From positions 1 through 64,000 of IMG/VR virus record IMGVR_UViG_2509276065_000002: DNA of 64,000 bases, one strand, 5' to 3'. The notes beneath the pieces were generated by a model. The model saw nothing but the letters and a program-made list of their open reading frames with translations. It did no database searches and had not been told where the DNA came from. This stretch comes from a virus (Duplodnaviria > Caudoviricetes). This document shows positions 32,458-33,770 of this stretch, one piece after another (position 1 is the first letter of the stretch; every line of letters starts with the position of its first letter). Position numbers and translations under genes: made by a program.

Positions 32458-32571
32458 GATCGAATTATGGACCTCCGTAACCAATTTGTAAAGGCCCTCC
32501 CACATAAGCATTCTCTTATGGGAAACCATAACTTATGGTGTCTCGTAACTGGAGGTTATGGGACACGCTAA
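32232..32571. promoter_or_regulatory. Five 16-bp operators, consensus TTATGG-N4-CCRTAA
   Basis: Sites at 32232 (reverse), 32465, 32516, 32533, 32556. Confidence 0.8.
32464..32492 (-). promoter_or_regulatory. Lytic promoter for cro
   Basis: TTTACA-N17-CATAAT, six nt before ATG 32457. Confidence 0.7.
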
Positions 32572-33121
32572 CCACGCCTCCATCCACCAACCGCTTCTGA
32601 TGGGGGTCCTCGCTCGCATGGCAATTAAAGAGAAACCACAGTGGCTGTCCTCTACTGAAGCAGGAGCATTTATCCAGCGCCGCCGCGAGGAGATAGGGCT
32701 AACGCAGGAGCAGATGGTCGAGCGGACCGGTATCAAGAATGTCACTTACCTCAGCAGTCTTGAGAATGGTCGCCACCATATCGGTCGCAGTGAGTACTTC
32801 GGGATCGTTGCCGAAGTACTGCGTCTGACTGAGGACGAAATGCTGATGCTCAAGCCGAATTTGATTCGTGCGCCGGGCGGCGTCAATGCTTTGAAGGGCT
32901 ACAAACATCAAGGAGAGCTTGCAGATCAGCTTCTCCTCGACGACTTGCCACCCGGTCTCGAAGAAGCAATTCGGAAGTACGGCGAGGACTACCCACCGCT
33001 GCGTGACCCCAAGATCCAGCAGCAGCTCGCACTTGCCCGTTTCTACACCGGTCGTGGTCCCCAGAGTGCCAGCCAATGGCTCGCCTACTACCTCTCCATT
33101 GCCAGTTGGATCGGCACCTAA
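32558..33121 (+). CDS. XRE repressor with DdrO-like C-terminal domain
   Basis: HTH (RREEIGLTQEQM...YLSSLENGR); C-terminal LPPGL...L.LARFYTGRGPQSASQW..YYLSI..WIG; true start may be 32618. Confidence 0.85.
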   Translation: MGHANHASIHQPLLMGVLARMAIKEKPQWLSSTEAGAFIQRRREEIGLTQEQMVERTGIKNVTYLSSLENGRHHIGRSEYFGIVAEVLRLTEDEMLMLKPNLIRAPGGVNALKGYKHQGELADQLLLDDLPPGLEEAIRKYGEDYPPLRDPKIQQQLALARFYTGRGPQSASQWLAYYLSIASWIGT

Positions 33122-33128
33122 GGCCCCC

Positions 33129-33770
33129 GTGGACGACCTGCCAGCTTCCTACGTCGCGTATGTCGAGAAACTTCACGCCCTCCACGACTACGAACTGAAC
33201 TTCCGGCTGCTCAGCGAATCCCTTGGTGTCCGGATCAAACCCGGACTGGAAAACAGCTTTGTCCCTGGTCCCACGCCCACCATCGTGCTCGAGCCTCACC
33301 TCTACGGCTGGTCCCACTCGCGCGTCGGACTGCACGAACTCGGTCACCTGTTCATCCGCTGGAGTGGCATCGAAGCGCAGCTCCTGAGCGAATGCAGCGA
33401 CAAAAACTACGCCCTGCAAGCCATGGAGAATCTCGCGCACCTCACCGTGGCCGTCCTTCAGATTCCAACACCGCTCCTCGAGGAGGCCCTGCAACGTCAC
33501 GGCGACTCGCCGGCCGCCATTCTCTACATGGCCAAGCGTAGTGGCGCATCCCTTGGCTCGGCCCTCCGGCGCTGGGTGTTCCAGGATGCCCGTGAGCCCC
33601 GCTTCGCTTTCTCAACCGCCGGCAGCTACATCCTCGACACAGCCGCGTTCGGCACATTGATACCGATCTACCGGGGCGCCAGGATTCCCGAGCCTGCGAT
33701 CGAGTTTCCCGAAATCAGCCTGCGCACCTTCAAGCCTGGGCGCAGTGTCGGTGTTTTCGTTGGCAGGTAA
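33129..33770 (+). CDS. IrrE/ImmA-family Zn metalloprotease
   Basis: HELGH plus downstream E (AMENLAH); IrrE-like HTH segment LQRHGDSPAAILYMAKRSGASLGSAL. Confidence 0.9.
   Translation: MDDLPASYVAYVEKLHALHDYELNFRLLSESLGVRIKPGLENSFVPGPTPTIVLEPHLYGWSHSRVGLHELGHLFIRWSGIEAQLLSECSDKNYALQAMENLAHLTVAVLQIPTPLLEEALQRHGDSPAAILYMAKRSGASLGSALRRWVFQDAREPRFAFSTAGSYILDTAAFGTLIPIYRGARIPEPAIEFPEISLRTFKPGRSVGVFVGR

Follow-up and report, generated by a model that had tools for sequence, protein, structure and literature searches.

How could a prophage leave lysogeny when its repressor has no domain with which to cleave itself? This question is raised by two adjacent genes in a 64,000-nucleotide stretch of DNA, referred to here as the window, which covers positions 1 to 64,000 of the IMG/VR virus record IMGVR_UViG_2509276065_000002 (Duplodnaviria; Caudoviricetes). 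The window corresponds to positions 1452027-1516026 of contig C1 in a 4.5-Mb genome of 64% G+C, which was placed in the Deinococcaceae because canonical DdrO (L008:1004-1390:-) and IrrE (L001:1378-2181:+) genes are present in it. The first of the two genes encodes a DdrO-like repressor (32558-33121, plus strand). The second encodes an IrrE-like M78 zinc metalloprotease of 213 amino acids (33129-33770, plus strand), with a GTG start 7 nt past the repressor stop. A preliminary description of this DNA had placed both open reading frames (ORFs) at these positions and had quoted the repressor C-terminus; both were correct. We conclude that the two genes are probably the lysogeny switch of an approximately 40-kb Deinococcaceae prophage, built from a phage-borne IrrE/DdrO paralogue pair and working as proposed below. 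The data behind this conclusion are the homology of both proteins, the intact catalytic residues, the gene context, the operators, and the distribution of the family.

The repressor ORF encodes 187 residues from its upstream ATG. A start at ATG 32618, which gives 167 residues, was favored since it agrees with the public gene call and keeps the N-termini of homologues (P0002/P0003) in register, and all repressor residue numbers refer to this form. The protein is laid out as an XRE helix-turn-helix (HTH) N-terminal domain, a linker of about 30 residues assigned with low confidence, and a three-helix, DdrO-type C-terminal domain. HTH_31 (E 7.5e-8)/HTH_3 were the sole Pfam domains and Peptidase_S24 was not found at E values up to 0.01, in line with the earlier statement that the repressor lacks an S24 autopeptidase domain. 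By BLASTP, the HTH was 50% identical to that of host DdrO over 30 residues, recognition helix included. The C-terminal domain (residues 108-167; 32939-33118, plus strand) is made up of a DLPPGL helix, a second helix, a loop, and a last helix with an invariant Trp154. This end of the protein was helical in the AlphaFold2 (AF2) model, with helices at 114-121, 131-144, and 151-166, three in number like those of DdrO.

The relationship of this domain to DdrO was examined with a profile made from the C-termini of 29 relatives, from which DdrO and its close paralogue were purposely excluded. Searched against the whole PDB, the profile gave significant matches to the four DdrO entries alone (E 7.3e-6 to 5.1e-5), the next match being at 0.88. 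Among the 50,569 ORFs of the host genome, it found DdrO at E 4.9e-5, with noise beginning at 0.11. Alignment of the C-terminal family with DdrO by hhalign gave probabilities of 91.3% and 92.5% (E ~1e-6) over 53 columns, which is the entire DdrO C-terminal domain, and L114 and W154 were invariant across 33 aligned sequences, DdrO included. With host DdrO as the query, a second repressor in the same genome, that of locus L002, aligned full-length at 39% identity (E 6.7e-17), and the mobile-element C-terminal profile matched this protein at E 7e-16. Judged from these matches, the L002 repressor is an intermediate that bridges the phage repressor C-terminus and DdrO.

Pairwise BLASTP with host DdrO and a single-sequence phmmer search of the PDB did not reveal the C-terminal likeness, and BLASTP aligned the HTH alone. 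The similarity is therefore remote though real, since single-sequence searches detect just the HTH and profiles are required. The preliminary description had called the C-terminus DdrO-like by comparison with a DdrO ending, ALPKGL..., which agrees with the actual end of host DdrO, and the profile search of the PDB, the hhalign result, and the genome-wide hidden Markov model search all support the resemblance. The sequence relationships indicate that the repressor C-terminal domain is a true DdrO-type domain, a domain that was published as a novel fold without known relatives (PMC6868357). They also indicate that the repressor is a DdrO-like paralogue and not a DdrO orthologue, because the E-L↓R-G-x-R cut motif of DdrO (arrow, cleaved bond) is absent; about 12 of 32 family members retain the Arg at P1'.

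The second gene product carries the catalytic and metal-binding residues of IrrE. Its active site (33333-33428, plus strand) consists of H69-E70-L-G-H73 (HELGH, nt 33333-33347) and E100 (nt 33426-33428). H69, E70, H73, and E100 were the sole invariant columns among 34 aligned proteases, host IrrE among them, and their IrrE counterparts are H82/E83/H86/E113 (PMC12828697). The HELGH and E-x-L-x-H motifs pointed out earlier were thus located at residues 69-73 and at E100-N-L-A-H104, E100 being aligned with the third metal ligand of IrrE. In a PDB sequence search, IrrE/PprI entries were the best matches (E 0.004 and 0.014, residues 69-149) and there was no other meaningful match. The protease family aligned with host IrrE by hhalign at 97.9% (E 4.6e-13, residues 22-191). 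Foldseek ranked IrrE/PprI first (E 1.6e-9) for the AF2 model of the protease, which had a predicted local distance difference test score (pLDDT) of 79. Structural alignment with VIA superposed protease residues 1-213 on IrrE 11-263 / 22-275 (Z 12.4-12.9); the next matches were the Mycobacterium tuberculosis regulator structures 6CYJ/6CYY (Z 10.1) and CapP (Z 8.4).

The likeness to IrrE continues past the catalytic domain, as the preliminary description had held. An HTH-like linker domain (approximately residues 113-150; 33465-33578, plus strand) aligned with IrrE 129-162 by BLASTP, phmmer, and hhalign, and its helices at 114-124, 128-138, and 142-150 were modeled with pLDDT >90. It is followed by a C-terminal beta domain of about 59 residues with four strands (residues 155-213; 33591-33767, plus strand), recognized by VIA. 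The hhalign alignment reaches just the first strands of this domain (residue 191), and the domain on its own also matches unrelated alpha/beta domains with Z ~6. The 34-sequence alignment shows IrrE to be longer in this region by two insertions, one of roughly 12-16 residues and the other of about 33. The models suggest that the beta domain corresponds to IrrE's GAF-like domain in a shortened form. IrrE-like proteases on mobile genetic elements have been described as generally without a GAF-like domain (PMC8072749).

We also observed that the protease N-terminus (DDLPASYVAYVEKLHA, 33129-33180) echoes the first helix of the repressor C-terminal domain (DDLPPGLEEAIRKYG, 32939-32985). The pattern LP-x2-[FL]-x2-[YA][VI]-x3-[HY][AG] was found in both the repressor and the protease families. 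The repeat may have arisen by chance, or the protease may mimic the helix in order to dock onto repressor monomers.

The position at which the protease would cut was predicted by aligning the repressor with DdrO. The cleaved bond of DdrO, Leu106↓Arg107, aligned with Phe142↓Tyr143 (nt 33041-33046) in a 33-sequence MAFFT alignment, in hmmsearch (6ro6/6rnx), and in hhalign, and a 4-sequence MAFFT alignment put it at Tyr143↓Thr144 instead. Both outcomes lie inside ARFYTG, the segment in which the preliminary description had set the equivalent of the DdrO cut, so that this placement held in all four alignments. In the AF2 model, the predicted target segment, A140-R-F-Y-T-G-R-G-P148 (ARFYTGRGP; 33035-33061, plus strand), covers the point where the second-last helix ends and the loop begins, and DdrO is likewise cut at the end of its second-last helix/loop (PMC6868357). 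The DdrO motif is absent at this site, which reads R-F↓Y-T-G-(R)-G or, with the other alignment, F-Y↓T-G-R-G. Most family members have Phe, Leu, or Trp in the P1 column. The mapped M78 sites have a hydrophobic P1 as well, namely L↓R in DdrO (PMC6868357), F↓R in CapH (10.1101/2022.04.27.489752), and F↓M (F95↓M96) in ImmR (Bose et al. 2008, as cited in PMC6868357), and the predicted equivalence is therefore consistent with known M78 sites.

The P1' column falls into two classes: Arg, as in DdrO, in 12-13 pairs, and Tyr/Phe/His in about 20 pairs, the phage pair among them. All 12 Arg-class proteins and host IrrE had L/V/I in protease column 111, and all 20 aromatic-class proteins had Q/R/K/H, a covariation that is confounded by the common ancestry of the linked genes. 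From this pattern, position 111 is a candidate specificity determinant. Residue 111 of the phage protease is encoded by nt 33459-33461, and columns 62 and 66 act similarly.

The gene context and the operators point to a role in lysogeny. Divergent from the repressor lies a Cro-like XRE regulator (32197-32529, minus strand; Pfam HTH_3, E 2.2e-9; PHROG transcriptional repressor/regulator). Between the two genes, three exact copies of a predicted 16-bp operator, TTATG-N6-CRTAA, were found at 32465-32480, 32516-32531, and 32533-32548. A degenerate fourth site is present at 32556-32571 and a copy with 1 mismatch at 32232-32247. Counted by strand, the operator pattern matched 7 times, compared to 0.62 expected; all the matches fall at 4 distinct sites between 32232 and 32548, and none of 100 shuffled sequences reached 7. 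The Cro-like gene probably starts at an internal ATG at 32457, in which case all the operators would be intergenic. DdrO binds the 17-bp radiation/desiccation response motif (RDRM), with the core TATGYYHTTARCRKA (PMC8533742). The half-sites of the predicted phage operator are those of the RDRM and its spacer is one base shorter (16 vs 17 bp); a pattern search found no 17-bp RDRM anywhere in the window.

The surrounding genes show that the repressor/protease pair belongs to the immunity module of a siphovirus-like prophage integrated at a tRNA. An excisionase-like HTH_17 protein (31829-32200, minus strand; Pfam HTH_17, E 9e-9; phrog_66 excisionase) is encoded beyond the Cro-like gene, and a tyrosine integrase (34527-35885, plus strand; Pfam Phage_integrase, E 7.6e-22; phrog_1, E 1.4e-67), which probably starts downstream of its listed TTG, lies on the protease side. 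The integrase is followed by attR (35903-35951), one of two exact, directly repeated 49-bp copies of a tRNA 3' end. The other copy lies 4,009 nt before the start of the window, giving a prophage of approximately 39.96 kb, and no intact tRNA was found within the window. Further left, the minus strand carries genes for an O-like replication initiator, terminase large subunit, portal, head protease, minor tail, tape measure, and baseplate hub, with the terminase, portal, head protease, tape measure, and tail genes at 3.7-22.8 kb. The DNA to the right of attR (36-50 kb, G+C 0.56-0.61) is a different region of lower G+C.

From these data we infer cleavage, the position of the cut, the activating signal, and insulation from the host pair, and we propose the following mechanism. 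A repressor dimer, held together through its DdrO-type three-helix domain, would bind the 16-bp operators and keep the divergent cro/xis/lytic transcript off. The repressor, protease, abi, and integrase genes, all on the plus strand with tight spacing, probably form one operon. DNA damage or oxidative stress would render the co-encoded M78 protease active, the trigger being, by analogy with IrrE and CapP, single-stranded DNA (ssDNA) and/or released zinc. The protease would then cut monomeric repressor at Phe142↓Tyr143 (±1) in ARFYTGRGP, at the end of the second-last helix. Removal of the last helix would abolish dimerization, and the prophage would be induced without RecA. The aromatic P1', the loss of the Glu, Gly, and Arg that PprI requires, and the operator spacer that is 1 bp shorter probably keep the phage pair insulated both from host IrrE/DdrO and from three other pairs in the same genome.

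Several results weigh against this proposal. The repressor C-terminal domain was modeled by AF2 with pLDDT of only 58-72. In a whole-model Foldseek search of the repressor, which was not used as evidence as HTH matches dominate it, DdrO came 9th at E 0.1. The placement of the cut differs by one residue between alignments, three of the four favoring F↓Y and one favoring Y↓T, and the shared ancestry behind the column-111 pattern was noted above. The Pfam M78 model PF06114 scored below its threshold for the phage protease (14.8 vs 22 bits); the paralogous proteases of loci L002-L004 exceed this cut-off. The beta domain is about half the size of the IrrE GAF-like domain, and ssDNA sensing may not carry over to it. 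ImmA, which has no GAF-like domain, is not stimulated by ssDNA (PMC12828697). Finally, Rir has an HExxH motif and inactivates its repressor Crh, yet cleavage of Crh was undetected (PMC6868357, PMC12828697).

This last precedent suggests another way for the pair to work, in which the M78 protein would act as a non-proteolytic anti-repressor of the Rir/Crh kind, binding repressor monomers and preventing their dimerization with no cutting. Such a role would also fit the stable contact that IrrE makes with the N-terminal domain of DdrO (PMC12828697). However, it does not account for the family having kept H69, E70, H73, and E100, and nothing else, invariant in its 34 members and IrrE, or for the strong conservation, in close homologues, of the repressor loop that aligns to the DdrO scissile bond. 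We therefore regard an anti-repressor without proteolysis as unlikely.

Control could instead be shared with the host. Host IrrE would then cut the phage repressor and the phage protease would have another substrate, such as host DdrO, whose cleavage would switch on repair genes for the phage. The homology of the repressor C-terminal domain to the substrate domain of IrrE, the 50% identity to DdrO in the recognition-helix region, and the common half-sites of the operator and the RDRM could all be read in this way. The phage also encodes a DdrB-family protein amid its early genes (29790-30509, minus strand; Pfam PF12747, E 7e-43). DdrB is a Deinococcus-specific single-strand-annealing/single-strand-binding (SSB)-like repair protein. 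On the other hand, PprI is unable to cut DdrO when the Glu at P2, the Leu at P1, the Gly at P2', or the Arg at P4' is changed to Ala, or the Arg at P1' to Glu (PMC4374696). The phage repressor has Arg/Phe, Phe/Tyr, Thr/Gly, and Gly at P2, P1, P2', and P4', respectively, according to the alignment, so that no fewer than three of the four residues on which PprI cleavage depends are different. This suggests that host IrrE is unlikely to cut the phage repressor. It also makes the orthogonal protease-substrate pair of the preliminary description plausible; taken as a whole, that description is supported in part. Moreover, the protease is always encoded beside its own repressor, and position 111 tracks the P1' class of the cognate repressor. 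Shared control accordingly has a low probability.

A cargo gene with an abortive-infection domain, Abi_alpha (33809-34624, plus strand; Pfam PF14337, E 4e-54), lies between the protease and the integrase and, being on the repressor strand, is probably expressed in the lysogen. CapH/CapP pairs control adjacent defense operons (10.1101/2022.04.27.489752), CapP was the third-best structural family match (Z 8.4), and Abi_alpha is directly downstream of the protease, but it is very improbable that the pair is a CapH/CapP-like or toxin-antitoxin-like stress regulator of Abi_alpha and not the phage master repressor, given that no Abi_alpha homologue was found at the 34 other pair loci (tblastn, E 1e-4, with flanks of just ~1.5 kb) whereas integrase, xis-like, and cro-like homologues were present at some of them, that the predicted operators are in the divergent cro/repressor region, and that the only other HTH proteins among the scanned ORFs are the cro-like and xis-like ones.

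The distribution of the family fits a repressor encoded together with its own protease. When 125 Deinococcaceae genomes were searched with a protease profile, roughly 50 had full-length matches, often several per genome. Of 301 genomes sampled from the phylum, those with strong matches were 51 of 111 Deinococcaceae, 1 of 62 from a second family, and 0 of 127 from the other three families. A repressor with the same C-terminal domain was found upstream on the same strand at all 35 protease loci examined and was directly adjacent at 33 of them. Of the loci L021 (G084:C6:23317-23946) and L063 (G037:C1), one has a protease gene interrupted by TAG, and in the other ~1.2 kb lies between the repressor and its protease, as if the copies were decaying or rearranged. 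With an E threshold of 1e-3, the C-terminal-domain profile matched 184 representative clusters among 1.84 billion proteins, including DdrO-like proteins of about 130 residues that retain R-L/F-R-G. The closest homologues have a nearly identical C-terminal domain and loop, and one of them, P0003, has an HTH domain of another type. The metagenomic homologues P0002/P0003 are tentatively paired with P0007/P0006 because their contigs have equal lengths. In the 33-sequence alignment, the conserved C-terminal domain is joined to HTH domains of several types.

The genome itself holds four mobile-element pairs which, with IrrE/DdrO, make five pairs, each with a different loop. The other three mobile-element pairs are on contig C1 at 1633186-1634234 (L002), 2041409-2042634 (L003), and 516359-517640 (L004). 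The L002 repressor retains R-L↓R-G-R-R-P, and a few kb at most separate L002 from two integrase homologues. A direct homologue search returned 2-3 relatives per protein and thus understated the family compared to the whole-genome profile searches. No match to either protein was found by tblastn in 50,697 deposited phage genomes, and no true relatives of the locus were found among the metagenome, genome, or viral contigs searched for related loci. The sole metagenome-contig match, L009 (6001-6144), was rejected as a chance hit, in which EAIRKYGEDYPxLRDP of the repressor C-terminal domain happens to resemble the conserved aspartyl-tRNA synthetase motif EAIRKYGSDKPDLRNP. Public names for the proteins are generic ('helix-turn-helix transcriptional regulator' or 'hypothetical'). 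The literature searched gave no account of a Deinococcus prophage repressor with a DdrO C-terminal domain, only general statements on COG2856/XRE pairs.

As a repressor with its protease, the phage pair is closest to IrrE (PprI)/DdrO (PDB 3DTE, 8SLM, 6RNX, 6RO6). Both have an XRE HTH with a three-helix C-terminal domain and a cut, predicted in the phage repressor, between the last two helices. The two proteases agree in their metal-binding tetrad and in having an HTH-like linker, the C-terminal beta domain of the phage protein aligns to the GAF-like domain, and TTATG/CRTAA half-sites are common to both sets of operators. In contrast to the adjacent phage genes, irrE (2.93 Mb) and ddrO (1.13 Mb) are unlinked on contig C1. 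The DdrO loop reads IEL↓RGKRP whereas the phage loop reads ARF↓YTGRGP. DdrO has 129 residues compared to the 167 of the phage repressor with its ~30-residue linker, and IrrE has 268 compared to the 213 of the phage protease, in which the presumed GAF-like domain is about halved. The operators are 17 bp for DdrO and 16 bp for the phage, and identity to IrrE/DdrO is just 17-22%.

Pairs of an XRE repressor and a COG2856 protease on phages and integrative and conjugative elements are established in class and mechanism, the examples being ImmR/ImmA, phi105, MpaR, and Rir/Crh (PMC6868357, PMC8072749, PMC7907104). Since ImmR/ImmA-like switches on mobile elements are already known, the phage pair is a variant of a known switch type. 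ImmR/ImmA (ICEBs1, phi105) resembles it as a mobile-element immunity repressor with a co-encoded COG2856/M78 protease, by which ImmR is cut, and a hydrophobic P1 (Bose et al. 2008, as cited in PMC6868357). It is also similar in its order of repressor, protease, and integrase with divergent excision genes, the phage order being repressor, protease, (abi), integrase. However, ImmA has no domain after its peptidase/HTH part (PMC12828697), whereas the phage protease aligns to IrrE end to end. CapH/CapP of the cyclic-oligonucleotide-based antiphage signaling system (CBASS; PDB 7T5T) has a three-domain IrrE-like protease, a build that the phage protease may share, and CapP cuts an XRE repressor after Phe in its dimerization domain and is stimulated by ssDNA. 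It differs in controlling defense operons and not lysogeny, and it is a more distant match than IrrE. What lambda CI/LexA would have in common with the phage pair is a damage-induced loss of the C-terminal dimerization function that induces the prophage. Unlike in those repressors, the S24 domain is absent here, and cleavage would occur in trans, by a metalloprotease, and independently of RecA.

The DdrO domain appears in this family as a reusable 'cleavable dimerizer' joined to several HTH types, and the phage protease appears to retain the full IrrE domain order. It is possible, though we put this forward only tentatively, that chromosomal IrrE/DdrO and the switches of Deinococcaceae prophages and mobile elements are one diversifying family, whose pairs are insulated by P1' class (position 111) and operator spacing (16/17 bp) and share a common damage signal. 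If so, either a phage switch was domesticated by the host or a host switch was captured by phages, and prophage induction in these radiation-resistant bacteria would be tied to their RecA-independent radiation response through private, insulated protease-substrate channels. The five pairs with different loops in one genome offer a natural panel for M78 protease specificity. The locus also allows DNA-damage sensing independent of RecA-stimulated self-cleavage to be studied in Deinococcus prophages, and it gives a clue to the origin of IrrE/DdrO.

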